64,000 nucleotides of DNA from a virus. Both the position numbers and the translations under genes were made by a program. Location: positions 32,001-96,000 of IMG/VR virus record IMGVR_UViG_3300045988_179616. The stretch is one strand, 5' to 3'. Below, piece by piece: positions 3,364-52,821 of the stretch (the first letter of the stretch is position 1; each line of letters opens with the position of its first letter). The notes under the pieces were generated by a model. That model was given only the letters and a program-made list of their open reading frames with translations. It did no database searches and had not been told where the DNA came from.

Positions 3364-3918
3364 ATGGCTATTTTCATCGTAAGTGACCTCCATCTTGGGC
3401 ATTCGAAAGATTTCATCTACGGCGCGCGAGGCTTCGAAAATGTCGAAGATATGAATGAGATTATTATTCGTAAGTGGAATGAGATTGTGGATGAAGAGGA
3501 TGATGTATATGTATTGGGAGATTTGGTGATGGGGCCGGAGACAAATCTTCAAATGCTTCGGAGATTGAAAGGTCAGCTTCATATTGTAAGGGGAAACCAC
3601 GATACGGTTACTCGCTGGGACTTTTATCAAAAGCTTCCAAATATAGTGGAAGCAGAGAATAGTCTTTATCTTCGTTATGACGGATACAAGTTCTATTTGT
3701 CCCATTACCCCACGATTACAACGCGCGCTGACGTTGAGAAACCGTTAAAGAAGTGTTTGGTGAATTTGTGCGGGCACACTCACACAAAAGACCCGTTTGA
3801 AGATTGGGGAATTGGAATGATTTACCATTGTGAGGTAGACGCGCACGACTGCGCGCCAGTTCGGATTGATAAGATTATTGCCGATTTGAAACAAAAGATG
3901 AACAACCGCGCTGAGTAA
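3364..3918 (+). CDS. calcineurin-like metallophosphoesterase (second copy)
   Basis: Motifs SDLHLGH, LGDLV, GNHD and GHTH are present. It is distantly paralogous to 1087..1830. Confidence 0.75.
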   Translation: MAIFIVSDLHLGHSKDFIYGARGFENVEDMNEIIIRKWNEIVDEEDDVYVLGDLVMGPETNLQMLRRLKGQLHIVRGNHDTVTRWDFYQKLPNIVEAENSLYLRYDGYKFYLSHYPTITTRADVEKPLKKCLVNLCGHTHTKDPFEDWGIGMIYHCEVDAHDCAPVRIDKIIADLKQKMNNRAE

Positions 3919-5845: not shown

Positions 5846-6014
5846 AAAGCCTCCAAAATTTAGTGTTCAAAATTTTATAGAAAGAATAGCTGGAGTTTAC
5901 TTTCCTATTGAAGAGTAAAGGGGAGGAGTAATTATAATAAGTAAAAATTTTGGGAAAATTTTTGGGTACGCTTTGAGCGTACTTATTTTTTTGGGAAAAA
6001 TTTTTCGGAAAAAG

Positions 6015-6053
6015 GTGTACATATTATGTGTACATATTATGTGTACATATAGA
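6015..6053. repeat. tandem 13-bp repeat, 3 copies (GTGTACATATTAT)
   Basis: The sequence reads gtgtacatattatgtgtacatattatgtgtacatataga, and each unit contains the palindrome TGTACA. Confidence 0.9.
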
Positions 6054-6111
6054 GGGGAGAGTAGTAGGGAGTAGGAAGAGAAGGAGTAGGAATAGAGGCG
6101 TAAAAATATAA

Positions 6112-6159
6112 GTACGAGTAAAGGTACGAGTAAAGGTACGAGTAAAGGTACGAGTAAAG
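6112..6159. repeat. perfect tandem 12-bp repeat, 4 copies (GTACGAGTAAAG)
   Basis: Read directly from the sequence. It is embedded in a polypurine tract of about 160 bp (6050-6210). Confidence 0.95.
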
Positions 6160-6420
6160 GAGGAAGATAAGAGGGGTATAAGTAAAAGGGGAGTAAAAAA
6201 TAGGGCGTACATATTAGGTGTACTTATAGAGCGTATAAGTCTTTTGTAGTTATAGGAAGAGACTAGCTATATAAAAACGGTACTGCCAAGTGACGTCCAA
6301 GAACGACATATATGGTAATGGAAAAGTAGATAGGGATTTTTAGAGTTAGTTAGAATTGAAAAAGGGGTTGGTGCAAATTTTATTAGTAAGCAAATTTTAT
6401 ATATAAAAAATATAAATATA

Positions 6421-6478
6421 ATATGTACACATTATGTGTACATATAATACGTACTTATAATGCGTACTTATAGAGCGT
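6421..6478. repeat. cluster of degenerate GTAC-core repeats (TGTACA(C/T)AT, CGTACTTATA)
   Basis: The sequence reads atatgtacacattatgtgtacatataatacgtacttataatgcgtacttatagagcgta. Related copies lie at 5965-5990 and 6205-6240. Confidence 0.8.
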
Positions 6479-6495
6479 AGTTAGCGCGCTGTCAA
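6467..6495 (-). promoter_or_regulatory. candidate promoter TTGACA-17-TATAAG firing into the repeat region
   Basis: The minus strand reads ttgacagcgcgctaactacgctctataag. Confidence 0.35.
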
Positions 6496-6511
6496 ATTTT
6501 TCTTTGATTCT

Positions 6512-6540
6512 ATTCTACCAAATTTTCAGAGCGTTGTCAA
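6512..6540 (-). promoter_or_regulatory. promoter TTGACA-17-TGGTAGAAT firing into the repeat region
   Basis: The minus strand reads aaaatttgacaacgctctgaaaatttggtagaat, with an extended -10. Confidence 0.5.
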
Positions 6541-6561
6541 ATTTTCAGAATAATAAAAAAA

Positions 6562-6598
6562 AGAGGAGTAGGAATAAATCCTACTCCTCTTTTTTTTC
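6562..6598. terminator. bidirectional terminator
   Basis: Hairpin agaggagtagg-aataaat-cctactcctct, flanked by an A-run on one side and a T-run on the other. Confidence 0.75.
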
Positions 6599-6967
6599 TT
6601 AGTGGGCCTTGACGTAGCCGCGCTGAGGACCTTTCTTGCCCTCGACCTTTACATCGACCTTCTCCACAGTACCATCCAGCACAAAGGGCTTCAGGAGGGA
6701 AGGAACAGACGCTACCTTTACCTCATCGGTAAGACCAGCAGCCTCAATGAGCTGAGAAGCGGTCATAGCCTCATCTCCCATCGCATCCAGCAGAGCCTTA
6801 CGAATGGGAGCCTTCTCATCCTCGGCAGCCTGTTTCTTCTCCAGAACCTTCTGAGCCCGCTTTGCGTTGGCCTCATTCATCTTCTCGATAAGCTCAGTGG
6901 CCTTAGCCATCAGCTCATCATTCATCTCACCATTGGAAATAGCAGTGTAGAACTCACGATTAGTCAT
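6599..6967 (-). CDS. early wHTH-like protein, paralogue A
   Basis: 122 aa. It aligns by eye with 9997..10344 (MTNREF.AI...DEL...MTAS...VKV..KG.Q..Y). It uses G/C-ending codons, unlike its neighbours. Confidence 0.6.
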   Translation of the reverse strand: MTNREFYTAISNGEMNDELMAKATELIEKMNEANAKRAQKVLEKKQAAEDEKAPIRKALLDAMGDEAMTASQLIEAAGLTDEVKVASVPSLLKPFVLDGTVEKVDVKVEGKKGPQRGYVKAH

Positions 6968-7125
6968 AAAATATCTCTTTCTGCCCCTTTTGGCCTTATA
7001 AAGATAAAAGAATTTACGGCCTAAAATTTGACAAGTGGCTTGATGTGCCGTAGCCGTTTTCTTTTGGAGCTCATTCCCAGCTTAGGAGCGTTTTATTTTT
7101 TAGTCTTCCTTGACTTTCTGTATAT

Positions 7126-7154
7126 ATTATAGCGTAGAATTGGGAAAATTTCAA
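7126..7154 (-). promoter_or_regulatory. promoter TTGAAA-17-TATAAT for 6599..6967
   Basis: The minus strand reads tttgaaattttcccaattctacgctataat. Confidence 0.55.
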
Positions 7155-7394
7155 ATTTTACGGTCGCTAAAAATGCGTTTTTTTTAAAAGTAAAACTTTC
7201 CCAGCTTTTTTACAGAAATTTGTAGCTTTCCAGCTTTCCAGCTTATTTATAAAATTTGACAAGGGATAGAATTTGACAGTGGCCGGCGCCGAGTAAATTT
7301 AGCACATATAGAAATTTGACTTTAGTGATTTAGTGTGCTAAAGTGGAAGTAGAAAAAAATTCACAAAAATTTCGTACATTTTGACTATTGAAAT

Positions 7395-7422
7395 TTGACA
7401 AAAGGTATTGTATAATTATAAT
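7395..7422 (+). promoter_or_regulatory. plus-strand promoter TTGACA-16-TATAAT, antisense to the early block
   Basis: The sequence is aaatttgacaaaaggtattgtataattataat. A hairpin plus TTTTA follows about 60 nt downstream. Confidence 0.4.
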
Positions 7423-7442
7423 GGGATAAAATTTGACACGCG

Positions 7443-7450
7443 GCCCGGGC
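7443..7450. repeat. GCCCGGGC element, copy 1
   Basis: Context is cgcggcccgggcaattctttactccgctaaag, next to the terminator at 7481-7500. Confidence 0.9.
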
Positions 7451-7470
7451 AATTCTTTACTCCGCTAAAG

Positions 7471-7505
7471 TGAAAAAGAAACGGTGCATTTCTGCACCGT
7501 TTTAT
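7471..7505. terminator. bidirectional terminator
   Basis: Hairpin acggtgca-tttc-tgcaccgt with flanking aaaaagaa and tttta. Confidence 0.65.
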
Positions 7506-7511
7506 ACAACT

Positions 7512-7736
7512 TTACCAATCATAAGATGGTCTAATAAGTCGTTGAGTATTTGACCCACATTCCCATTCTACAAGAGACAGGTCATTTTCACGCATAAAAT
7601 CTACAGCATTACCATATTCTAATTCATAAAATTCTGCGGTCAATCGTTCGATTGCATCTTTTTCCTCTTCATAGATTCCTTTTAACTGTTCGTTACGTCC
7701 TTAGTAATCAGAAATAATGCAATATACTTTTTTCAT
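7512..7736 (-). pseudogene. small early ORF interrupted by an in-frame TAA at codon 12
   Basis: The ATG (7736-7734) overlaps the upstream stop (ATGA). The reading MKKVYCIISDY-TAA(7703-7701) is followed by 62 further sense codons in the same frame, ending at TAA 7514-7512. Confidence 0.45.
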
Positions 7737-7906
7737 TTTTCAAAAGCCGTCCTTTCTTCATCTTCGCAAATATAATCGTCATCTGCGTCCCAAAAATAGC
7801 CAAAATCGTCGCACTCTTTTAGTGGATTCTCAATACCACACTCGCCTTTTTTGTAGTATGGACAATCCCATCCATTGGCAGGACAATAAATCTTTCCTTT
7901 TCTCAT
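7733..7906 (-). CDS. small Cys-rich protein (57 aa, not in the ORF track)
   Basis: An AGGAGG RBS is present. The product is MRKGKIYCPANGWDCPYYKKGECG... Confidence 0.5.
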   Translation of the reverse strand: MRKGKIYCPANGWDCPYYKKGECGIENPLKECDDFGYFWDADDDYICEDEERTAFEK

Positions 7907-7950
7907 ATAGCCTCCTTTTAGTTATGTCGTCTTCTCTTGTTTGTATATAT

Positions 7951-7979
7951 AGTATAACATACTCTTTCATATTTGTCAA
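7951..7979 (-). promoter_or_regulatory. early promoter TTGACA-17-TATACT
   Basis: The minus strand reads ttgacaaatatgaaagagtatgttatact. Confidence 0.6.
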
Positions 7980-8011
7980 TAAGTTTAGATTGTATTTATA
8001 CGAAACTTTTT

Positions 8012-8019
8012 GCCCGGGC
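8012..8019. repeat. GCCCGGGC element, copy 2
   Basis: Context is tatttatacgaaactttttgcccgggccacaagg. It lies 32 nt upstream of the -35 box of promoter 7951-7979. Confidence 0.9.
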
Positions 8020-8037
8020 CACAAGGGGCGACAAAAG

Positions 8038-8688
8038 TCAACCCCAAAGTGCGCCATCAATATTTGGCATTCTACGCAAACATTCCATGAAGATTTCCTT
8101 TTCAATTAAAACATCTTCCAAACCACAATGAACTTCTTCAAAGGAATTGTTGCCAGACAGATAACGATAGAGAATTTCTGCGGTATACCGTCTTTGACCT
8201 CTTTTGGTTAGATAATTGTTATTGTAACAAAATTCACCATAATTTTCATCTTGAGAAAAGACTTCCTTTGCCATTTTTAGACTATCCCAAAGAATAACAC
8301 CACGAGGGAAAAAATAGCGATACTTTGAAGAAGTTAAATATCGCTGAGAGAGGTTGCAACTTCTATTATCAAATCGCATATTATGAGCGCAAATAATTTT
8401 TATATTGTACTGTTTACAAACATCATGGAGAATGAAACGAATCGTTTTCAAACGGTGGAGCTTGCGCTTTCCAGCTTGGATATCTTCCCAATATTGAGGG
8501 ATTTTTTCTTTAAAATAAGCATAACTCATCAGCTCTTTATCAAGAAAAATATCCGCCACTATATAGGAATGAGTTTCTACAGCTTCGCCAGTTTCAGTAT
8601 CAATGACACCAAAGCCAATATCATAAACCAAGGGGTCATCAAGAGAATTAGTGGTTTCAGTGTCAAGAATCAAAACAAATTTATCCAT
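8038..8688 (-). CDS. DEDDh 3'-5' exonuclease (DnaQ/epsilon-like)
   Basis: Exo motifs are LILDTETT (I), CAHNMRFD (II) and HCGLEDV (III). It has its own promoter at 8720-8748. Confidence 0.8.
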   Translation of the reverse strand: MDKFVLILDTETTNSLDDPLVYDIGFGVIDTETGEAVETHSYIVADIFLDKELMSYAYFKEKIPQYWEDIQAGKRKLHRLKTIRFILHDVCKQYNIKIICAHNMRFDNRSCNLSQRYLTSSKYRYFFPRGVILWDSLKMAKEVFSQDENYGEFCYNNNYLTKRGQRRYTAEILYRYLSGNNSFEEVHCGLEDVLIEKEIFMECLRRMPNIDGALWG

Positions 8689-8719
8689 CAGAATCGGCTC
8701 CTCTCTTTACTGTATACAT

Positions 8720-8748
8720 AGTATAACAGATAAAAAGTGAAATGTCAA
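8720..8748 (-). promoter_or_regulatory. early promoter TTGACA-17-TATACT
   Basis: The minus strand reads ttgacatttcactttttatctgttatact. Confidence 0.6.
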
Positions 8749-8794
8749 TAGTTTTCTTGAAAAAGTCATAAACTTATCCGTGCGTGTCATCGGC

Positions 8795-8802
8795 GCCCGG
8801 GC
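8795..8802. repeat. GCCCGGGC element, copy 3
   Basis: Context is gtgtcatcggcgcccgggcacacttcactacgctaaagcgctaaag. Confidence 0.9.
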
Positions 8803-8838
8803 ACACTTCACTACGCTAAAGCGCTAAAGTTTTTTGCG

Positions 8839-8866
8839 AAAAAAAAGGTGACGATTTCTCGTCACC
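8839..8866 (-). terminator. rho-independent terminator
   Basis: Hairpin ggtgacga-tttc-tcgtcacc with a T8 run on the minus strand. Confidence 0.75.
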
Positions 8867-8873
8867 CTTTCGA

Positions 8874-9230
8874 TCACTTGTTATTTACAGTTTCTCGTTC
8901 GGCTTTCTTCGCCTTTGCCTTTTCTCGTGCAAGGCGGTCCTTTTCCATCTTCTTCCGCTTCTTCTCCTCTCGTTCTGCTTTGGCCTTAGCCTTAACTTCA
9001 CTTTCAAGGCGATAGTTTTCGGCTTCCTCGTAGCCATCAAAAAGGTCGCCGTCCCTCGTCCCCTTGGGGACGCTAAAAGTAAGGTTCAAATAGCCCTCAT
9101 CATCATCCAGCGCCCACGGAATCGAATACGTTCCACTCTTAATCTGAAGAACGGTTTCTCCCTCACTTTCGAGAAAATTCTTGACTTTCTGCATGAAATC
9201 AATCTTCACGACTTCGCTTTTCTTTGCCAT
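8874..9230 (-). CDS. hypothetical protein with an acidic core and a Lys-rich C-terminal tail
   Basis: 118-aa ORF with a promoter at 9262-9290 and a terminator at 8839-8866. Confidence 0.55.
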   Translation of the reverse strand: MAKKSEVVKIDFMQKVKNFLESEGETVLQIKSGTYSIPWALDDDEGYLNLTFSVPKGTRDGDLFDGYEEAENYRLESEVKAKAKAEREEKKRKKMEKDRLAREKAKAKKAERETVNNK

Positions 9231-9261
9231 TCAAAGCACTTCCTTTCTTTACTGTATACAC

Positions 9262-9290
9262 AGTATACCACACAATTTTAATTTTGTCAA
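9262..9290 (-). promoter_or_regulatory. early promoter TTGACA-17-TGGTATACT
   Basis: The minus strand reads ttgacaaaattaaaattgtgtggtatact. Confidence 0.6.
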
Positions 9291-9316
9291 TACCTCTTTT
9301 CTGATTTTCTAAAATT

Positions 9317-9345
9317 ATTATAACAAAAATTTTTTTGAATTTCAA
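9317..9345 (-). promoter_or_regulatory. tandem upstream promoter TTGAAA-17-TATAAT
   Basis: The minus strand reads tttgaaattcaaaaaaatttttgttataat. Confidence 0.5.
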
Positions 9346-9381
9346 ATTTTCTTTAGTACTTTAGTGTGATAAAGCGCCGGC

Positions 9382-9389
9382 GCCCGGGC
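9382..9389. repeat. GCCCGGGC element, copy 4
   Basis: Context is actttagtgtgataaagcgccggcgcccgggcaagtttcgtaaaaag. Confidence 0.9.
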
Positions 9390-9398
9390 AAGTTTCGT

Positions 9399-9425
9399 AA
9401 AAAGAAACGGCGCGAAGTGCGCCGT
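9399..9425 (-). terminator. rho-independent terminator
   Basis: Hairpin acggcgc-gaagt-gcgccgt with tttcttttt on the minus strand. Confidence 0.7.
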
Positions 9426-9832
9426 CAGTTATTATAGAAAGTTTCTTCTATTTTACAATCAATCATTGGAGAAAGTCCTTCTTTCTCCAAATCTGATGTT
9501 GAAATATACAAACCTGTTGAAAGATTTACCACACCACTAACTCCGTTTCTATTGCAAACTTTCATGTAGTCATAGACTGAATTGGGGAAATGAAAAATTG
9601 TACCCTCTTTTATAAAACCAATGTGAATTTTCATTTTATTCAATCCCCCCCATTCTTTAAAAAGTCTCAAATCACCATTTTGTTCAATTTCAAAAAGCTC
9701 ATATTCCTTCCCCCAGAAAAGGTTTTTTGCATTTTCAACAGAAGTAATGCAAATAGGGATATAATCGGGACCTTCGGAATTTTTATACGATGGAAAATAC
9801 TTTATGACAAGAATAGATTTTGGGAAGTTCAT
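9425..9832 (-). CDS. hypothetical protein (135 aa)
   Basis: The ORF has an AGGAG RBS, a promoter at 9861-9889 and a terminator overlapping its stop codon. Confidence 0.55.
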   Translation of the reverse strand: MNFPKSILVIKYFPSYKNSEGPDYIPICITSVENAKNLFWGKEYELFEIEQNGDLRLFKEWGGLNKMKIHIGFIKEGTIFHFPNSVYDYMKVCNRNGVSGVVNLSTGLYISTSDLEKEGLSPMIDCKIEETFYNN

Positions 9833-9860
9833 TTTATTTCTCCTTTCTTTTTGTAATTAT

Positions 9861-9889
9861 AGTATAGCAAAAATTTTCTAATTTGTCAA
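9861..9889 (-). promoter_or_regulatory. early promoter TTGACA-17-TATACT
   Basis: The minus strand reads ttgacaaattagaaaatttttgctatact. Confidence 0.6.
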
Positions 9890-9920
9890 CCCCTAAAACC
9901 AATATTTATACGAAACTTCT

Positions 9921-9928
9921 GCCCGGGC
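9921..9928. repeat. GCCCGGGC element, copy 5
   Basis: Context is tatttatacgaaacttctgcccgggcactttcgcgag. It lies 31 nt upstream of the -35 box of promoter 9861-9889. Confidence 0.9.
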
Positions 9929-9962
9929 ACTTTCGCGAGATAGTGTACTAAAGTTTTTCTTT

Positions 9963-9990
9963 AAAAAAGAGTGGCGATTTCTCGCCACTC
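9963..9990 (-). terminator. rho-independent terminator
   Basis: Hairpin gagtggcga-tttc-tcgccactc with a T6 run on the minus strand. Confidence 0.75.
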
Positions 9991-9996
9991 CTATAC

Positions 9997-10344
9997 TCAC
10001 TTACGAACAATGGTATACTGCTTCTGCTTGCCCTTCTTGGGAACCTTCACTTCCTCAACCGTCAGCTTGCCAGCATCCACAAGCTGACGACACAGAGAGC
10101 TAATCTTCTGCGTAGACAGGTTTGCGTCTACCTCATGAATCTCGCTTGCCGTCATAGGCTTGACGGCCAGAACCTCCAGCAGATGGGCCTTAATGGGTTC
10201 GTTCTCAAGCTGGGTCTTGCTGGGCTTAGAGCTGCGCTGGGCGTTCCGCTTATCCAGCTTCTCCAGCTCGGCGGCGGCGTGAGTGGTCAGCTCATCGCTC
10301 ACATTAGCGTTGATGATAGCTTTGAAGAACTCACGATTAGTCAT
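9997..10344 (-). CDS. early wHTH-like protein, paralogue B
   Basis: 115 aa, a paralogue of 6599..6967. It shares the same G/C-ending codon style and has tandem promoters upstream. Confidence 0.6.
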   Translation of the reverse strand: MTNREFFKAIINANVSDELTTHAAAELEKLDKRNAQRSSKPSKTQLENEPIKAHLLEVLAVKPMTASEIHEVDANLSTQKISSLCRQLVDAGKLTVEEVKVPKKGKQKQYTIVRK

Positions 10345-10427
10345 AATAGACTCCTTTCATACGGCGGATAGGTCGCCACCCATTTTTTTATATTCAAAAG
10401 AGGTGTTCCTCTCTTGATTACATATTT

Positions 10428-10456
10428 ATTATACCATAGATTTTAGAGATTGTCAA
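10428..10456 (-). promoter_or_regulatory. early promoter TTGACA-17-TGGTATAAT
   Basis: The minus strand reads ttgacaatctctaaaatctatggtataat. A duplicated weaker copy (TTGATA-16-TATAAT) lies at 10557-10584. Confidence 0.6.
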
Positions 10457-10644
10457 GAGGGAATTTCAAATTTTTTTGAAAACTTGTTAGTTACCGAGTT
10501 GTCGAACAAATCAGGAAACCCTTTCGGGAATTTCCTGTTCCCTCTTGACATTATTTATTATAACAGATTTTAGAAGATTATCAAGTGTCAAAATGCACAA
10601 AGTTTTGCCTTGCTCCTGTTTTGTTTTTATGCAAATCGCCGACG

Positions 10645-10652
10645 GCCCGGGC
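10645..10652. repeat. GCCCGGGC element, copy 6
   Basis: Context is cgccgacggcccgggcacgttgtttcc, abutting the hairpin at 10656-10676. Confidence 0.9.
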
Positions 10653-10655
10653 ACG

Positions 10656-10676
10656 TTGTTTCCTTAGAGGAAACAA
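10656..10676 (-). terminator. hairpin abutting a GCCCGGGC element (no T-run)
   Basis: Hairpin ttgtttcc-ttaga-ggaaacaa. Confidence 0.35.
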
Positions 10677-10684
10677 TACCCAAG

Positions 10685-10843
10685 TCAAGGAGTTCCCCAA
10701 CAATCCATCGCATAAATGTGACTATTTTCATGTTGATTCGCTAATTCTTTTGCTTCCTCATAAGAAAGACAAGGAACGCCAACGAAAGTCCCATCTTCAC
10801 TTACTACCGCCCAAATAGCGTCATCCCAGTCAAAATCTCGCAT
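10685..10843 (-). CDS. small hypothetical protein (52 aa, not in the ORF track)
   Basis: A GAGAGGAG RBS is present. The product is MRDFDWDDAIWAVVSEDGTF... The overlapping + strand ORF 10585..10818 is judged spurious. Confidence 0.45.
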   Translation of the reverse strand: MRDFDWDDAIWAVVSEDGTFVGVPCLSYEEAKELANQHENSHIYAMDCWGTP

Positions 10844-10860
10844 AAAAATTCTCCTCTCTT

Positions 10861-11301
10861 TTATCCCGCTAAAACTTTCAGAACACTTGCCATCGCATCA
10901 GGATGAAAACCACCCATTCCCCAATCAACCAAGTTTCCCGCTTCGTCATCAAATAGAATATCATCAGAAGAAGAACGAAAACTCGTTTTCTTTGTACCAT
11001 ATTTTACAATATGAATTTCATCAAAGGAAACACTTCTCAAATGCTGACGCAACCAGCGCAATTTTTCAGCCTTTACAGCTTCAAGAAATTCGGGGTTTCT
11101 GTCTTTGCTTCCCCATGAAATCACCCCAATCTTTACACCCTTTCGCTGAATTTTGTTCAGCTTGCGCGCCAGCGTATTCATATTACAAAGAGGGCGAGCT
11201 TCTGCATAAATTTTTGCGTCATAAGCTCGCAAGCGAGGCAACCAGTCTTTTGCGCCATATAAGTCGGCAATCGTGCCATCCATATCAAAATAAATAGTCA
11301 T
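10861..11301 (-). CDS. HAD-superfamily phosphatase, 5'(3')-deoxyribonucleotidase-like
   Basis: It has the N-terminal FDMDGTIAD motif, and its size and layout resemble NT5C-type nucleotidases. Confidence 0.6.
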   Translation of the reverse strand: MTIYFDMDGTIADLYGAKDWLPRLRAYDAKIYAEARPLCNMNTLARKLNKIQRKGVKIGVISWGSKDRNPEFLEAVKAEKLRWLRQHLRSVSFDEIHIVKYGTKKTSFRSSSDDILFDDEAGNLVDWGMGGFHPDAMASVLKVLAG

Positions 11302-11332
11302 AATTCTTTCTCCTTTCCTTTACTGTAACTAA

Positions 11333-11361
11333 ATTATAACAGAAACTTTTCTATTTGTCAA
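11333..11361 (-). promoter_or_regulatory. early promoter TTGACA-17-TATAAT
   Basis: The minus strand reads ttgacaaatagaaaagtttctgttataat. Confidence 0.6.
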
Positions 11362-11409
11362 GTATTACTTTTCTTTTTTATTCAACTGCGCCGTGTGTGT
11401 CATTTTTTG

Positions 11410-11417
11410 GCCCGGGC
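11410..11417. repeat. GCCCGGGC element, copy 7
   Basis: Context is gtgtgtcattttttggcccgggcaattctttaacaagataaag. Confidence 0.9.
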
Positions 11418-11611
11418 AATTCTTTAACAAGATAAAGAAAAGATGGGATTCCTCCCACCTTTATTCTTCAGAAATTTTGTTTAATTCTTTTCTCACATTT
11501 TACTTTTTTTATTTGACTTCACCATTTTTTGTGTAAAAAGCAACAGGGGCAAGTTCATAGGCACGAGGATTAGCCCAACCATTTTCTTTTTGGAAAAATA
11601 GTGCCGAAGTG

Positions 11612-11812
11612 CTATCTTTCAAAAAGGTCCTGGATACCTTGAGAAAGAAAACACTCTTTCCAAGAAAAATATTCTCTATTTTCATCAAGGTATCTTTTTA
11701 TTCTTTGATAGCAAGCAGAATATTCGTCTGCCGAATAATCAGAACAGAGATTCAAAAGTAATTCTTCTTCGGTGACAACTTTACAAACAGCTTCATTATA
11801 AAAAAATCTCAT
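11612..11812 (-). CDS. hypothetical protein (66 aa)
   Basis: The ORF lies directly downstream of the 11828..12004 ORF. Confidence 0.5.
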   Translation of the reverse strand: MRFFYNEAVCKVVTEEELLLNLCSDYSADEYSACYQRIKRYLDENREYFSWKECFLSQGIQDLFER

Positions 11813-11827
11813 AAAAATTCCCCTTTC

Positions 11828-12004
11828 TTACCAATTCATAACAAAAATCCAGCCGATGAAAAATACAGCTCCAAGGGCATATATACCAGCTTTCGCCGCA
11901 TAATGCCAATTGTGGCTTTTTGCAAATGAATACATATTCATAAAGGACATACCAGCATACGTCAATCCAGCAAGCAGGACACCCAGTACAGCAACAACAA
12001 CCAT
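11828..12004 (-). CDS. small two-TM membrane protein (58 aa, not in the ORF track)
   Basis: The product is MVVVAVLGVLLAGLTYAG...GIYALGAVFFIGWIFVMNW, and a promoter lies at 12039-12066. Confidence 0.45.
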   Translation of the reverse strand: MVVVAVLGVLLAGLTYAGMSFMNMYSFAKSHNWHYAAKAGIYALGAVFFIGWIFVMNW

Positions 12005-12038
12005 TTCAGAAACCTCATTTCTTTTTTACTGTAATTAA

Positions 12039-12066
12039 ATTATACTATATTTTTCTAAAAAGTCAA
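12039..12066 (-). promoter_or_regulatory. early promoter TTGACT-16-TATAAT
   Basis: The minus strand reads ttgactttttagaaaaatatagtataat. Confidence 0.5.
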
Positions 12067-12123
12067 GTCCTTTTTTGAATTTTTCTGAAAAAATTTTCCT
12101 TTATTACTTTAGTGTGATGAAGT

Positions 12124-12131
12124 GCCCGGGC
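12124..12131. repeat. GCCCGGGC element, copy 8
   Basis: Context is actttagtgtgatgaagtgcccgggcaagttctttagcgagataaag. Confidence 0.9.
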
Positions 12132-12151
12132 AAGTTCTTTAGCGAGATAAA

Positions 12152-12180
12152 GAAAAAAAGAACGGGTAAATTTTACCCAT
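12152..12180 (-). terminator. rho-independent terminator
   Basis: Palindrome gggtaaaattttaccc with a T-run on the minus strand. Confidence 0.55.
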
Positions 12181-12861: not shown

Positions 12862-13329
12862 TTACTTATTGTCTTTTGCCATCAGTCGGAACAGCTGTCC
12901 CTCGGACAAGAAACTTGCTTTCTGATACTTGATTTGATAGGGCTTGCCGTCAATCTCGATATCTCCGGCTTCTGTAAATGGGATATTATCGGCTTTCCAT
13001 TTCTGCCCATAGAATTCAGTGACCAGCTTTTCAAACATCTGTCCCCGGTTGTATTTGCTATTAGCTACCAAATTTTCAAGGTAACTAACGGAACATAGCG
13101 GAATGGACTCACCATTGGCTATTAGCTCTATTTTTTGGGCTGTTGTGGGGGCAAATTTTAATGTTTGTCCCTGTCCCCGGCTTGCGGTTTGTGTGGTCAA
13201 GTAGTGTTCCATATCCGCCATATTACAGGCTTTTTTTACCATGTAGACCGTTCCCCGAACAGCTACACCAAAAATGTAGTTATGAGTAAAAGCATGATTA
13301 TAATAGCATTCAATCAGGTTTTTTTTCAT
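12862..13329 (-). CDS. possible PD-(D/E)XK (Mrr-like) nuclease, first gene of the leftward early operon
   Basis: 155 aa. GQMFEKLVTEFYG...AGDIEIDGKPYQIKYQK fits the E...D...(Q/E)xK restriction-endonuclease core. A promoter lies at 13347-13376. Confidence 0.35.
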   Translation of the reverse strand: MKKNLIECYYNHAFTHNYIFGVAVRGTVYMVKKACNMADMEHYLTTQTASRGQGQTLKFAPTTAQKIELIANGESIPLCSVSYLENLVANSKYNRGQMFEKLVTEFYGQKWKADNIPFTEAGDIEIDGKPYQIKYQKASFLSEGQLFRLMAKDNK

Positions 13330-13346: not shown

Positions 13347-13376
13347 ATTATCAGAATTTTTTTATTGACTTGTCAA
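13347..13376 (-). promoter_or_regulatory. leftward early promoter TTGACA-18-GATAAT
   Basis: The minus strand reads ttgacaagtcaataaaaaaattctgataat. It lies in the divergent control region. Confidence 0.5.
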
Positions 13377-48912: not shown

Positions 48913-49815
48913 TTATTTTAGCCCAGTAGAACCGAAGCCTCCATCAGCCCTTTCTGTATCTTTCATAACTTTATCTACCAGATAGAAATTAGCTTTGGGA
49001 ACTTCAGCGAGGACTAACTGGGCAAATTTCTCACCCTTATGAATGTAATGGTCCGTGCCATGTAGGATAGAAGTAATAATAGGATGGCCATTATTATCGA
49101 ATTCATAAGTAATATCTTGAATAGGTGCTTCCACATTTTCAACAATAACACAGACTTCTCCACGGAACCCAGCATCAATAGTTGCGGGGGTATTCGCGAC
49201 TCTTAACTTTGTCTTTAGACAACGACCACTCTTAGGACGAATCTGTAACTCATAACCATTAGGAATAGCAAACTTTAAGCCAGTAGGAATTAATTTTGTC
49301 TCTCCGGGATGGATAGTATAATCTTGTAGTGCATACAAGTCCATTCCACTATCATCTATATGCGCATATTCAGGCATCCGGGCCCCTTTTCGGCATTTCT
49401 CATAAGGAATTTGGATGTATTTCTTAGCAACTCCTTGAGTTTCACTGATACAGTTGGCTAGCCCATTAGCTAGTTGCTTCAGGAAATCTTTCTTTTGAGC
49501 AGAGAAGCCTTTTAGTGTATCAATCTTTTGACCTAATTGGACAAAATTTTGAACCATATCTTCGACAGTGGCGCCATTAGCATTTATCGCTTGGGCAAGG
49601 AACAAACGAGTATTTGCATTATTCAAACTCCGTAAGTAGCTATCCAAAACTCCAGGAGCTAACAAAGTGAATTTATCTTCGGGGAGGTCTAGTAATCCCC
49701 CAATTGCTTCAAGTGTATCTTCTTTGCCAGAAAGCTCTCCCATTAGAGAAGATAGTTGATGGACATCTTCTTTAGTAATTTCCTCTTGAGTAGAAAAATC
49801 AAATATCTCAGCCAT
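48913..49815 (-). CDS. dut: dUTPase with a roughly 150-aa N-terminal extension
   Basis: The C-terminal half carries trimeric dUTPase motifs: DSGMDLY, IRPKSG, IDAGFRGEV and GGFGSTG. Confidence 0.85.
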   Translation of the reverse strand: MAEIFDFSTQEEITKEDVHQLSSLMGELSGKEDTLEAIGGLLDLPEDKFTLLAPGVLDSYLRSLNNANTRLFLAQAINANGATVEDMVQNFVQLGQKIDTLKGFSAQKKDFLKQLANGLANCISETQGVAKKYIQIPYEKCRKGARMPEYAHIDDSGMDLYALQDYTIHPGETKLIPTGLKFAIPNGYELQIRPKSGRCLKTKLRVANTPATIDAGFRGEVCVIVENVEAPIQDITYEFDNNGHPIITSILHGTDHYIHKGEKFAQLVLAEVPKANFYLVDKVMKDTERADGGFGSTGLK

Positions 49816-50032
49816 CTAATTCCTCCCATAGCTCTCCAAAAATTTCAGTTATCTTGACTAACCATAGCTCACCGATAATCTCACCTTTGGCCTTTTTCGT
49901 TTTATAGGTGTATCCTGCTGAACCAATAGTAAATCCTTTTTCACAAGCATCTTTTCGATAATTTTCAATTACTTGCTTGGCTTCTTCTTCAGTAAAACAG
50001 ATAATTTCTGTTTTTTCTTTATAAGTTCTCAT
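49808..50032 (-). CDS. hypothetical protein (74 aa)
   Basis: ORF overlapping the dut start. Confidence 0.5.
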   Translation of the reverse strand: MRTYKEKTEIICFTEEEAKQVIENYRKDACEKGFTIGSAGYTYKTKKAKGEIIGELWLVKITEIFGELWEELDG

Positions 50033-50041
50033 ATATTCTCC

Positions 50042-50281
50042 TTAGTCTTTTACATCAATATTTAGAGAATCAAGATTATTTTTATCAATTGATGTTGATG
50101 AATTGCTTGTAGTAATTGTAGAATAACAGTTAGGTGTAGTTGTAATATTAGAACCATAATAAATAGTATAGCTATCTATTTTACCTTCATTATAAACCTC
50201 ATTCAGTAGTTTTTGAAGCTCTTCTTTCGTAAATTCTATCTTACCCTTTTCGTTATGAGGAAATACTCTAATTTTTGTCAT
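50042..50281 (-). CDS. hypothetical protein (79 aa)
   Basis: ORF in the operon. Confidence 0.5.
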   Translation of the reverse strand: MTKIRVFPHNEKGKIEFTKEELQKLLNEVYNEGKIDSYTIYYGSNITTTPNCYSTITTSNSSTSIDKNNLDSLNIDVKD

Positions 50282-50282
50282 A

Positions 50283-50882
50283 TCAATTCTCCTTTTGTGT
50301 CAATTCCATAAATCTTGGTAGTGTCTCAATCCAATCACAAATCATCTGCCAATCAGGTAGGCGATGATGACGTCGTTGTTGATAAATTGTTTTTAGTTGT
50401 TGATAGTTTGTTGTCATTCCGGCTGTTAGCTCAAAACCCATTGGAATATTATAAAGAATTTCAAGATACTTTTCATTCATAAGTTTATGAGTTTCTTCTG
50501 TTTTTTTCTCTAAAGAAGATAATCTATTATATTCATCAATTTTTTCCTGACAAATATCAATAATTCTTCTATCAACATAAACATTACATTGTTTAGTTAG
50601 AGAAAATTTTAAAACCTTATGCATTTTGCTTTGGCTTGAAATGGGCTCCATCCAATGATACCGTTCCGCTTGCATCCAAGCATTTTGACTAATTGTTAAA
50701 TCAAATTGGACAATAATTCCTTTTAGAGCATTATCATGTCCTTGACCAGTCGGGCAAGTAAGACAATTCCTAATACCAGGAGTAAGCTCACTATTCAAAT
50801 TTTCAATATTGACAGCCTTTGGATATTTAGCAGTTTTAATTGCTCGTTCAAGGCCATACACTTCAGTATTTTCAATCTTCAA
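50283..50882 (-). CDS. divergent ThyX-like (flavin-dependent thymidylate synthase fold) protein
   Basis: 199 aa. GQGHDNALKGIIVQFDLTISQNAWMQAERYHWMEPISSQSKMH aligns by eye with the ThyX gH.S.lEh..f.f.i.gvSR....ql.RHR..s.qqSqRY block. The C-terminal IPMGFELTAGMTTNYQQLKTIYQQR matches LP..t.t.i.....N.R.l.hf..lR. The canonical RHR, SQRY and R..LP residues are substituted. Confidence 0.45.
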   Translation of the reverse strand: MKIENTEVYGLERAIKTAKYPKAVNIENLNSELTPGIRNCLTCPTGQGHDNALKGIIVQFDLTISQNAWMQAERYHWMEPISSQSKMHKVLKFSLTKQCNVYVDRRIIDICQEKIDEYNRLSSLEKKTEETHKLMNEKYLEILYNIPMGFELTAGMTTNYQQLKTIYQQRRHHRLPDWQMICDWIETLPRFMELTQKEN

Positions 50883-51295
50883 ATATATCTCTCCTTTACA
50901 AAATCTCCATCTTCATCTATATAATAAACATTCTTGATTCCCAAATTTTTTATAAGCTTACTACAAGCAGGACAAGGTTTGCTACAAGCCCTTTCTCCTG
51001 TTTTACGTTCTCTAAAAGTAAAAATGGAAACTTTATCCCATTCTATCTCTTTTCCAATTAAAGGAGATAGAGCAGAAATTTCCGCGTGTTCACAAGAATT
51101 GGAATTTTTATAATCTTCAAAATTACGATACTTATTATAGTAAAATTGAAGAGGACGAGTTTTTGTAGAGTTGCAAGAAGCAGATAAAATTCTTTTTCCA
51201 CTAACAACTACTGCGCCGACTCTTGCTCTATCAAAATTAGAAAGCCGACACATTTGTTTAGCGATATTGAAGAAACTTTTTTCTCTGTGGGTCAT
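50879..51295 (-). CDS. dCMP deaminase
   Basis: Contains the zinc motifs CEHAEISAL and PCPACSKLI, and has the right size for a deoxycytidylate deaminase. Confidence 0.85.
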   Translation of the reverse strand: MTHREKSFFNIAKQMCRLSNFDRARVGAVVVSGKRILSASCNSTKTRPLQFYYNKYRNFEDYKNSNSCEHAEISALSPLIGKEIEWDKVSIFTFRERKTGERACSKPCPACSKLIKNLGIKNVYYIDEDGDFVKERYI

Positions 51296-51329
51296 TCTAT
51301 CAACGCATCCTTTTCTTTTTACTATAATA

Positions 51330-51358
51330 AGTATATCATAAAATTATTCTTTTTTCAA
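51330..51358 (-). promoter_or_regulatory. internal promoter TTGAAA-17-TATACT upstream of dCMP deaminase
   Basis: The minus strand reads ttgaaaaaagaataattttatgatatact, overlapping the 3' end of glyA. Confidence 0.4.
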
Positions 51359-52624
51359 ATTTTTCCTTTTATCCAACTCTTTTATAATTTGGTCTATTCG
51401 GCGCGCGCACTCTCTAAATTCAACCGATGTCCACCCTTTTGTAGTCATAGCTGGTGTTCCAATTCGTAAACCAGAAGTCTCCATCGGACTTCGATTTTCA
51501 TTAGGGATACAATTCTTATTTAGAGTAATATTATGCTTATCAAGTTCTTCTTGAACTTCGCGCCCTGTAAGATTAGGATAGTTATAAGTGAGATCAATTA
51601 GGAATAGGTGATTATCTGTTCCTCCACTTACAATTTTATATCCAAGGCTCTGAAATTCGTTGCACATTGCTTTGGAATTCAAAACTACTTGCTTAGCATA
51701 ATCTCTAAATTCAGGAGTTAGGGCCTCTTCAGCGCAGACTGCTTTTCCTGCAATGACGTGCATCAAAGGCCCTCCCTGATTACCCGGGAAGACCGCGCCG
51801 TCTACCTTCTTCGCTAGTTCTGGCTTACAAAAGATTAGTCCGCCACGTGGCCCGCGCAGAGTCTTATGAACAGTAGTAGTAATAATATCAGCCAAACCAA
51901 AAGGAGAAGGATGACATCCACTGGCTATCAATCCTGCAATATGTGCCATGTCAACCATAAAATATGGTCGATAATTATCATTTCTTTCAATCATCCCTTC
52001 AAGTTGAATCACATCAATTATTTCTTTCATTCTCTTGAAATCAATAATGCGACTATAGGCACTTGCGCCAGCTAAGACTAGTTGTGGATGGTAAAAACGA
52101 ATTTTTTGTTCAAAATCCTTATAATCAATAAATCCATTTTTATCTACTCCATACTCAATATGATTGAAAATTTTACCACTAATATTGACAGGAGAGCAAT
52201 GTGATAAGTGGCCTCCATTCGCCAAGGACATGGAAAGAATTGTATCTCCTGGTTTTAGAACTGCCATATATGCCGAAATATTAGCTTGAGTTCCACTATG
52301 AGGCTGGACATTTACATGATAGTCAGTATTGAAAACTTCTCTCCACTTATTACAGCAATATTCTTCTATTTGGTCTACTACTTGACATCCACCATAATAG
52401 CGTCCTTGACGTCCAGAATATCGTGAACATTCAGGATATCCCTCAGCGTATTTAGCTGTAAGACAAGAAGCCATAGTAGCTCGAACTGCATCACTAGGAT
52501 AGTTTTCACTAGCGATGAGCTCGATATTTTTTTGTTGGCGTTCTGCTTCAATTCTAATTAGATTAGCTACCGTTGGAGAATGGTCATTTACAAAATTATA
52601 AACTATTGGATCTAAAGAACTCAA
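51344..52624 (-). CDS. glyA: serine hydroxymethyltransferase
   Basis: 426 aa. Contains ELIASENY, AEGYP..RYYGGC and the PLP-lysine block TTTVHKTLRGPRGG. Confidence 0.9.
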   Translation of the reverse strand: MSSLDPIVYNFVNDHSPTVANLIRIEAERQQKNIELIASENYPSDAVRATMASCLTAKYAEGYPECSRYSGRQGRYYGGCQVVDQIEEYCCNKWREVFNTDYHVNVQPHSGTQANISAYMAVLKPGDTILSMSLANGGHLSHCSPVNISGKIFNHIEYGVDKNGFIDYKDFEQKIRFYHPQLVLAGASAYSRIIDFKRMKEIIDVIQLEGMIERNDNYRPYFMVDMAHIAGLIASGCHPSPFGLADIITTTVHKTLRGPRGGLIFCKPELAKKVDGAVFPGNQGGPLMHVIAGKAVCAEEALTPEFRDYAKQVVLNSKAMCNEFQSLGYKIVSGGTDNHLFLIDLTYNYPNLTGREVQEELDKHNITLNKNCIPNENRSPMETSGLRIGTPAMTTKGWTSVEFRECARRIDQIIKELDKRKNLKKE

Positions 52625-52809
52625 CTTTCTTCCTCCTTTGCTTCTAAATAGCCTCTCATATGTTCATCTTTTAGGGCTTGTTGAATGTTCTTCCAAGCAT
52701 CGGGAAAAAGAGAACCAATCAAAAAACTAAAACTAATTTCTTCGCTATCAAAATTTTCAATAACTTTTGAAATTTTTTGAAAACGCTCTTTTGAAACTGT
52801 CATTTCCAT
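52621..52809 (-). CDS. hypothetical protein (62 aa)
   Basis: ORF overlapping the glyA start. Confidence 0.45.
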   Translation of the reverse strand: MEMTVSKERFQKISKVIENFDSEEISFSFLIGSLFPDAWKNIQQALKDEHMRGYLEAKEEES

Positions 52810-52821
52810 AACTAATTCTCC

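Follow-up and report, generated by a model that had tools for sequence, protein, structure and literature searches.

What is the function of a perfect, all-G/C palindrome of eight base pairs that recurs once in every gap of a row of phage cassettes? The question is raised by a 64,000-nucleotide stretch of viral DNA (positions 32,001 to 96,000 of the IMG/VR record IMGVR_UViG_3300045988_179616; hereafter the window, numbered from its first letter). An exact search of the window found the octamer GCCCGGGC at 7443, 8012, 8795, 9382, 9921, 10645, 11410 and 12124, with no other copy. Dinucleotide shuffles give an expectation of 0.06 copies, and eight copies were reached in 0 of 100 shuffles. One-mismatch variants number six (3.8 expected), all of them outside the array. 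Successive copies are 569, 783, 587, 539, 724, 765 and 714 bp apart, with one copy per inter-cassette gap, between minus-strand open reading frames (ORFs). A preliminary description of this DNA had reported the eight positions, their absence elsewhere in the window, an abundance far above chance and one copy per gap at intervals of 540–780 bp, and the search bears out each of these statements (539–783 bp by our count). A similar density elsewhere would have marked a generic element of the repetitive extragenic palindrome (REP) or bacterial interspersed mosaic element (BIME) type. Instead, GCCCGGGC is confined to 7443–12131 with zero copies in the rest of the 64 kb, and 165 of 175 sites in relatives lie downstream of the gene that heads the array; this comparison covered the window and the relatives' loci, as distinct from the host chromosome. 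In our judgement there is about an even chance that GCCCGGGC is the operator of the 155-amino-acid (aa) protein encoded at the head of the array, and that it serves also as a joint for module exchange.

From 7.4 to 12.2 kb, the minus strand carries cassettes of one or two genes in a row, each with a near-consensus promoter of the sigma-70 type and most with an intrinsic terminator. In the direction of transcription, a linker consists of a terminator, often a CTTTA-N6-TAAAG box, the octamer, sometimes a GTTTCGTA, TGACACNCACGG or GATTTGCATAAAA box, and then the -35 element; such composite linkers of promoter and terminator flank the accessory ORFs. The octamer had been described as lying between the terminator of one cassette and the -35 box of the next. 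This holds for six of the eight copies, the exceptions being 8012, which has no terminator in front of it, and 7443 at the end of the array. The distances to TTGACA given earlier for copies 2, 3, 5 and 7 agree with those in the following list of features.

7443..7450: GCCCGGGC copy 1, at the array end, 13–20 nt downstream of the predicted start of the plus-strand consensus promoter 7395-7422
8012..8019: copy 2, with the -35 of promoter 7979-7951(-) 32 nt downstream; the stop of ORF 8038..8688 lies 19 nt before it, with no terminator in the interval
8795..8802: copy 3, with the -35 of promoter 8748-8720(-) 47 nt downstream
9382..9389: copy 4, upstream of promoters 9345-9317 and 9290-9262(-), flank boxes inverted relative to copy 5
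9921..9928: copy 5, with the -35 of promoter 9889-9861(-) 31 nt downstream
10645..10652: copy 6, followed in the minus-strand view by a GATTTGCATAAAA box and promoter 10584-10557(-)
11410..11417: copy 7, with the -35 of promoter 11361-11333(-) 48 nt downstream
12124..12131: copy 8, followed by promoter 12066-12039(-); first in the series of sites downstream of the head operon
12066-12039, 11361-11333, 10584-10557, 10456-10428, 9889-9861, 9345-9317, 9290-9262, 8748-8720 and 7979-7951, minus strand: near-consensus sigma-70-type cassette promoters
12186-12156, 11462-11439, 10537-10512, 9426-9406 and 7502-7479, minus strand: intrinsic terminators closing cassettes
near 9968-9990 and 8848-8870: two more terminators (hairpin and T-run), read by eye
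7328, 7455, 8806, 9359, 11422, 12107 and 12137 (span 7328..12152): CTTTA-N6-TAAAG boxes beside sites
7999-8006, 9392-9399 and 9909-9916: GTTTCGTA/TACGAAAC boxes by copies 2, 4 and 5
8778-8789 and 11391-11402, plus strand: TGACACNCACGG boxes between site and promoter, copies 3 and 7
12862..13329, minus strand: head-of-array ORF of 155 aa, the candidate site-specific protein, of an unannotated family
13347..13376, minus strand: head-operon promoter, sigma-70-like (TTGACA-18-GATAAT), with no GCCCGGGC upstream

Only the 8-bp core is constant among the linkers, as the information in the flanks does not exceed 0.5 bit at positions outside it. The flank sub-families listed in the preliminary description are found at the copies it named: AAGTTTCGTA beside 9382(+), 8012(-) and 9921(-), AATTCTTTA beside 7443 and 11410, ACTTTAGTGTGATRAAG preceding 9382 and 12124, and TGACACNCACGG adjoining 8795 and 11410. 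Over the fetched loci, small palindromes recur on either side of the site, namely CTTTA-N6-TAAAG, GTTAG-N6-CTAAC, CGAAC-N4-GTTCG, GATTTGCACAAAA and AATTGTCAGACAATT, and the CTTTA-N6-TAAAG box is kept in relatives of both palindrome types described below. The linkers show no hairpin excess over shuffles (z -0.3 to +0.3). A hairpin or cruciform function of the linkers is ruled out by this folding at shuffle level, and the site is thus expected to act as a duplex sequence.

Comparison with close relatives bears on the partner of the octamer. Close relatives were defined as the 14 IMG/VR contigs with a gene 93–99% identical in aa sequence to the 439-aa gene located just right of the array. The 12 with a usable upstream region contain zero copies of GCCCGGGC, and the sole close relative that bears it is contig ..._180318 (L007/L054), with nine copies. 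The same linker positions in those 12 hold a different palindrome, TTAGACGA-N3-TCGTCTAA, and an outward promoter is present at 96 of its 111 distinct sites, 12, 22–23, 31–33 or 42 nt away. From the -35 box to the terminator the cassettes are 80–94% identical between palindrome types; the homology breaks at the linkers, and cassette order differs. The type of palindrome does not follow the backbone of the phage: the window is nearer to the other-palindrome L014 (99% aa, 91.8% nt) than to the GCCCGGGC-bearing L007 (93% aa, 88% nt). What differs together with the palindrome is the gene in the head slot, which is the 155-aa ORF 12862..13329 in the window and L007 and an unrelated 182-aa ORF (called as 182–204 aa) in the other-palindrome relatives. 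The comparison took in all window ORFs, three stretches of the GCCCGGGC-type contig and ten other-type contigs. Among the ORFs in the covered parts of the window, only one real ORF, 12862..13329, is present in the GCCCGGGC-type relative yet missing from all 10 other-type contigs; a spurious plus-strand ORF that also follows the site type is itself linker sequence. Since both the palindrome and the protein at these positions are different in near-identical phages, the octamer is most likely the docking site of a hitherto undescribed phage protein encoded at the head of the row.

The preliminary description had offered an operator for a dimeric phage regulator as one explanation, and had pointed to the two winged helix-turn-helix (wHTH) paralogues of the region as candidates. 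The kind of explanation is the best supported, but the candidates have to be replaced, as it is ORF 12862..13329 that tracks the site. Neither wHTH gene covaries with site type: 6599..6967 has 97% identity in an other-palindrome relative, equal to that in the other GCCCGGGC-bearing relative, and 9997..10344 is 86–90% identical to other-palindrome relatives versus 76% to the GCCCGGGC-bearing one. The DEDD exonuclease 8038..8688 was also rejected as specific to the GCCCGGGC type, its family being present in both types, with other-type copies only 29% identical.

The 155-aa ORF heads the leftward region at a divergent junction with the 439-aa gene. Its family gave 358 matches and 567 cluster representatives at 50% identity, and the 182-aa family 179 matches; a library-wide profile search with the former found only further standalone proteins of ~150 aa. 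At 80 IMG/VR loci with a 155-aa homologue, at least one GCCCGGGC is present in 54 and at least three in 35, where ~0.02 are expected per locus. The 24 loci with both 10-kb flanks hold 165 copies downstream of the gene and 10 upstream, and in contigs from GTDB 3–6 sites lie downstream of it in 7 of 10 loci. Some homologues are accompanied by arrays of other G/C octamers, namely GGCCGGCC (19 copies in L056, eight each in L091 and L153) and GCCGCGGC (five copies; L126 and L127). The three homologues with RGKGY in a conserved loop (versus RGAGY or RGQGY) all pair with GGCCGGCC. The second family behaves similarly, as in other assemblies 182-aa homologues of 48% identity precede arrays of 10 and 15 copies of TTAGACGT-N3-ACGTCTAA. 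About 18 copies of the latter element occur also at L015:780-6670, in a distant relative (37% aa in the 439-aa gene); a homologue of either head protein is absent from the 21 kb fetched there.

AlphaFold models of both head proteins are confident (pLDDT 92 for the 155-aa and 91 for the 182-aa protein). Invariant residues include E100, D123, Q132, I133, K134 and E143 in the 155-aa family, and E35, D55 and E68-x-K70 in the 182-aa family; the acidic and lysine residues of both sit on an alpha-beta-beta core in the models. By eye, this E...D...(E/Q)xK pattern resembles the active site of PD-(D/E)xK nucleases, and the secondary-structure elements come in a fitting order, which we take as no more than a lead. 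Neither protein is named by any source: searches of Pfam, NCBIfam, PHROGs, PADLOC and PDB profiles, and of PDB and BFVD by Foldseek, were all empty. The best Pfam match, of one member of the 182-aa family to PDDEXK_9, is not significant (E = 0.03). Profile comparison with hhalign found no homology between the two families, and tblastn with both proteins for known phage relatives returned one weak, unannotated match only.

The octamer occurs in many other phages as well. A pattern scan of IMG/VR for CTTTA-N6-TAAAG with GCCCGGGC gave 38 stretches, spread over many contigs of ~10–190 kb, with arrays of up to 17 octamers 0.6–1 kb apart. Across the clade as a whole, the arrays reach 18–19 copies. 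Cassette families common to these arrays and the window encode an NT5C-like nucleotidase, the DEDD exonuclease, a wHTH protein and the product of ORF 8874..9230. Over all fetched loci, a strong sigma-70-type promoter fires outward within 150 nt of 334 of 431 distinct GCCCGGGC sites, and only 9 of the 431 have promoters on both sides. The distance from site to -35 is periodic at 10–11 bp among 176 non-redundant pairs (R = 0.19; p = 0.006 against a jitter null), with modes at 31–32, 41, 51 and 60–62 nt, which by arithmetic place the site centres near -72, -82, -92 and -102. Site centres in helical steps upstream of the -35 are what a Class I (CRP-like) activator site would show; for GCCCGGGC the periodicity is weak though significant, and for the other palindrome the distances given above fall into sharp classes, but many of its promoters are related to one another. 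In 326 kb of arrays, 391 exact copies of GCCCGGGC stand against a total of 140 for the 24 one-mismatch variants, those altered in the central CCGG being the rarest. This excess of exact copies indicates that all eight positions are under purifying selection.

The octamer may also mark points at which sequences have been exchanged. Where L007 has a single site, the window has site, cassette and site (9382...9921), that is, one cassette indel bounded exactly by two sites. Site pairs with homologous left flanks were collected from all loci; 47 were homologous across the site and 16 had unrelated right flanks. With the site masked and a gapped filter applied, the change-over lies no more than 5 nt from the masked site in 12 of these 16 independent losses of flank homology, 3.5 being expected. 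Ends of high-scoring segment pairs (HSPs) fall at sites in 9% versus 5%, a ~2-fold enrichment that is biased by the conserved octamer itself. It is also noted that some relatives have doublets or triplets of site, box and site with a period of 37–49 nt, as gene-free units of octamer and box (L038:6385-6500, L042:10760-10806, L074:10780-10870). The indel, the change-overs and the doublets suggest that the octamer behaves as a joint between independently assorting modules, in the manner of the promoter-early stem-loops (PeSLs) of T4-type phages. A cassette-boundary recombination site had been the second of the earlier explanations; the exactly bounded indel and the change-overs speak for it, and the difference in HSP ends is small.

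Based on these observations, we propose that the 155-aa protein, as the product of the first gene of the leftward early region, transcribed from its own site-free promoter, would recognise GCCCGGGC as a duplex and bind it once per inter-cassette linker. It would presumably do so as a homodimer, since the site is a perfect palindrome. Bound ~60–100 bp upstream of the start points of near-consensus, host-type promoters, and preferably on one face of the helix, it would subject all the accessory single-gene cassettes of the row to common control. As these promoters are near consensus, the protein would most likely repress or shut off their already strong activity, as phi29 p4 does at A2c and MrpR of SPbeta at its SPBRE sites, with activation as the alternative. 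The octamer is the only sequence common to all linkers, and would thus be the place where terminator-side and promoter-side modules join and exchange.

The closest known case is that of SPBRE and MrpR (PMC10516654). SPBRE elements are short conserved sequences in the promoter regions of many early or accessory genes of SPbeta, first recognised in silico and later shown to be the site of the phage-encoded repressor MrpR (YopR); the motif has 15 bp and occurs at about ten promoters, and MrpR has a tyrosine-recombinase fold. The shared feature is a short conserved element repeated at early-gene promoters of an SPbeta-like phage. The present system differs in its 8-bp all-G/C palindrome, in a 155-aa protein without a detectable fold relative, and in the exchange of the pair between near-identical phages. 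A protein like MrpR is not apparent here, as the head protein has no integrase or recombinase domain and no integrase-like ORF is found among the scanned window ORFs.

A second parallel concerns the location of the site. The small protein p4 of phi29 acts on inverted repeats at about -82 and -71, upstream of promoters A3, A2b and A2c; weak promoters are activated by it, whereas strong ones are repressed through retention of RNA polymerase. Both the site sequence and the protein are different from those considered here, and the phi29 sites are few and form no array.

Several points weigh against an operator of the head protein. Binding, dimeric state, sign of regulation and timing are all deduced from sequence. 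A recognisable DNA-binding domain was found in neither head protein by domain searches, and the E...D...(E/Q)xK pattern looks more like a nuclease than a classic DNA-binding motif. The association of gene and site is strong rather than absolute, since GCCCGGGC is missing from 26 of the 80 homologue loci, and a subgroup of homologues lacks G/C octamer arrays altogether; covariation could also reflect physical linkage of the gene to the array instead of recognition. Consensus promoters need no activator, and a simple steric repressor would not usually bind at -70 to -100. Kinship among the sequences may inflate the phasing, which is weak in any case. The window is about half of the genome, so that a second covarying gene may lie elsewhere.

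A nuclease is the main alternative to be weighed against the operator. The head gene would encode a site-specific PD-(D/E)xK-type endonuclease with cutting or nicking activity at GCCCGGGC, and repair from sister or co-infecting genomes would reshuffle cassettes and boxes, with cassettes gained, lost, inverted and reordered at the sites as an analogue of integron or T4 PeSL shuffling. We consider this unlikely, though by no means far-fetched. It would account for the invariant residues on the alpha-beta-beta pattern of both confident models, for the polar layout of a head gene followed by an array, for the indel at 9382...9921 and the 12 close change-overs, for the occurrence of the same boxes on either side of the site in either orientation and in site-box-site doublets, and for a cassette order that varies between close relatives. 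However, no nuclease fold was confirmed by Pfam, PDB profiles or Foldseek, no methyltransferase or other means of self-protection is found among the scanned window ORFs, and the phage would cut its own DNA eight or more times; the enrichment of HSP ends is only ~2-fold and biased, and cleavage does not predict phasing between site and promoter. A small, possibly dimeric protein with an E...D...xK pattern and an 8-bp palindrome would fit a Type IIP restriction endonuclease, but fold match and methyltransferase are lacking in these searches and the site is enriched, not avoided, in its own genome. The octamer is the SrfI restriction site.

An extended version of the nuclease alternative, of which we are a little more doubtful still, holds that a small endonuclease of a new family drives an integron-like exchange of anti-host cassettes, the joints being the 8-bp palindromes, or the 19-bp ones of the alternative module, that flank every cassette and regulatory box, and that whole specificity modules are swapped between near-identical phages. 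The likeness to an integron lies in a gene at the head and, behind it, single-gene cassettes in polar order with palindromic sites between them. However, the attC sites of integrons are long, imperfect palindromes and function as folded single strands, and the cassettes they separate lack promoters. Here no IntI was found by the array, the 8-bp site does not fold, and every cassette has its own promoter and terminator.

Three further accounts rank below both the operator and the nuclease. A protein-bound octamer could be a roadblock or insulator between transcription units, stopping read-through or isolating promoters. The site does lie between a terminator and the next promoter at most linkers, and directly after a terminator-less gene at 8012, and its distance to the promoter varies. 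The precedent is provided by the stoperators of Cluster A mycobacteriophages, with many repressor sites per genome and a lineage-specific sequence (PMC6550527); these are 13-bp, asymmetric, transcription-oriented sites that act on elongation, and their consensus tracks the sequence of the repressor (PMC6550527, PMC9283540). Dozens of intergenic copies of one short site and a lineage-specific consensus that covaries with a regulator are common to both systems, covariation being the only part of the latter that is seen here. In contrast to stoperators, GCCCGGGC is a perfect palindrome upstream of promoters and confined to one array; moreover, most linkers already have good intrinsic terminators, and a roadblock leaves the 10–11 bp phasing with the -35 unexplained. 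We judge it improbable. To about the same low degree we credit an account without a dedicated phage protein, in which the octamer is a host-factor site or the conserved core of a promoter and terminator linker spread by homologous recombination. Linkage alone can give an association of gene and site, the 26 homologue loci without the site fit it, and PeSLs mediate shuffling without a dedicated enzyme (PMC4122927). In PeSLs the whole promoter and stem-loop are conserved and act via homologous recombination (PMC2839356, PMC4122927). The resemblance extends to single-gene accessory cassettes and to terminator/promoter linkers that would serve, in hyperplastic regions, as exchange points between otherwise unrelated sequences, but only 8 bp are constant here, the flanks are mixed boxes, and a dedicated gene covaries with the core. 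Eight conserved bp are too few for ordinary homologous recombination, yet all eight are strongly selected; near-identical phages, probably of the same hosts, have a different palindrome with a different head gene; and the gene heads the array in many distant phages.

Lastly, the element might act in RNA, within short antisense or sense transcripts, as the third of the earlier explanations had it. This is very improbable. Copy 1 does lie between a plus-strand consensus promoter, which is close upstream, and a two-way hairpin, but the other seven copies lie after terminators and before promoters with no plus-strand promoter nearby, folding is at shuffle level, the flanks vary freely and no Rfam family is matched. 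None of the explanations offered, including the operator, accounts for the conversion of all linkers between palindrome types with the cassettes nearly unchanged.

Two possible small transcripts are noted nevertheless in the array. A promoter with 12 of 12 consensus positions fires, at 7395-7506(+), into copy 1 and the two-way hairpin 7479-7502, and could yield a plus-strand RNA of ~75 nt that contains the octamer. At 10584-10512(-), an intrinsic terminator lies only ~20 nt beyond a near-consensus promoter (TTGATA-16-TATAAT), with no ORF in the interval, a unit that may specify a small RNA of 40–50 nt; it is framed by inverted TTTGCA(C/T)AAA and TTTGTGCA boxes (10626-10638, ~10590-10605). A search of the window for RNA genes found no tRNA and no Rfam family.

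Other repeats accompany the arrays. The box arrangement of this small-RNA unit (GATTTGCACAAAA ... TTTGTGCAATTTGCC..TAGACA) is found again next to G/C octamers in many relatives, including some that lack octamer arrays. The box CGAAC-N4-GTTCG, the LexA box of Firmicutes, adjoins the G/C octamer on either side in L019, L021, L074 and L099 (L021:5335-5375, L099:19313-19399), with none in the window. In other-palindrome relatives (L014:6030-6230, L002:8302-8400), half-sites TTCGTCTAA alternate three times in tandem with palindromes TGTGA-N6-TCACA, the CRP-type consensus. The repeat AAATTTGACA has four plus-strand copies (7024, 7252, 7391, 7429) and two inverted ones (6490, 6535) at 6490-7438 of the window, and is enriched also in relatives of both palindrome types. 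The non-coding stretch 5990-6470 is dense in repeats, with three tandem copies of GTGTACATATTAT, four tandem GGTACGAGTAAA units and several CGTACTTATA, and could serve as an origin or in packaging.

This DNA comes from a large siphovirus that encodes a tape measure protein of 2569 aa, a DnaE-type polymerase of 1322 aa, a ribonucleotide reductase and a RecJ-like exonuclease. When the region was compared with INPHARED by megablast, no near match emerged among cultured phages. The earlier statement that no element with this core has been described is in line with that empty search, and with a literature search on GCCCGGGC and phage that gave only primers and adaptors. The relatives carry the Pfam families YonB, YonD_N and YonG_N, and a YonF-like terminase 34–39% identical to those of SPbeta-like phages; together these place them in a distant SPbeta-like clade, whose hosts the assignments of metagenome-assembled genomes point to as rumen and gut Bacillota. 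Phass-1 is a distant relative of the cultured era, recoded and poorly annotated. The block at 48913-55080(-) encodes a dUTPase-like protein, dCMP deaminase, serine hydroxymethyltransferase and ribonucleotide reductase, and an NT5C-like deoxynucleotidase cassette lies at 10861-11301(-); these genes of nucleotide metabolism may hint at a modified pyrimidine in the phage DNA. Left of the array, the plus strand encodes a cREC_REC-domain protein and two calcineurin-like phosphoesterases (100-852, 991-1830, 3364-3918), candidate enzymes for the degradation of signalling nucleotides as judged by their domains.

A repeated phage operator is a kind of element that is already known; the core sequence, the two candidate partner families and the natural swap are new. 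If GCCCGGGC is the operator of the head protein, one short sequence and one small protein would define the control of accessory early genes in a large, entirely uncultivated SPbeta-like clade of gut and rumen phages, the controlled cassettes being probably genes for host takeover and anti-defence, and two sizeable protein families without annotation or fold relatives would gain functions. Should the head proteins be nucleases, they would represent a new way for phages to shuffle gene cassettes. The exchange of palindrome and protein between phages ~90% identical would be a natural swap of specificity, directly testable with two proteins and two oligonucleotides, and would show the turnover of immunity or regulatory types.

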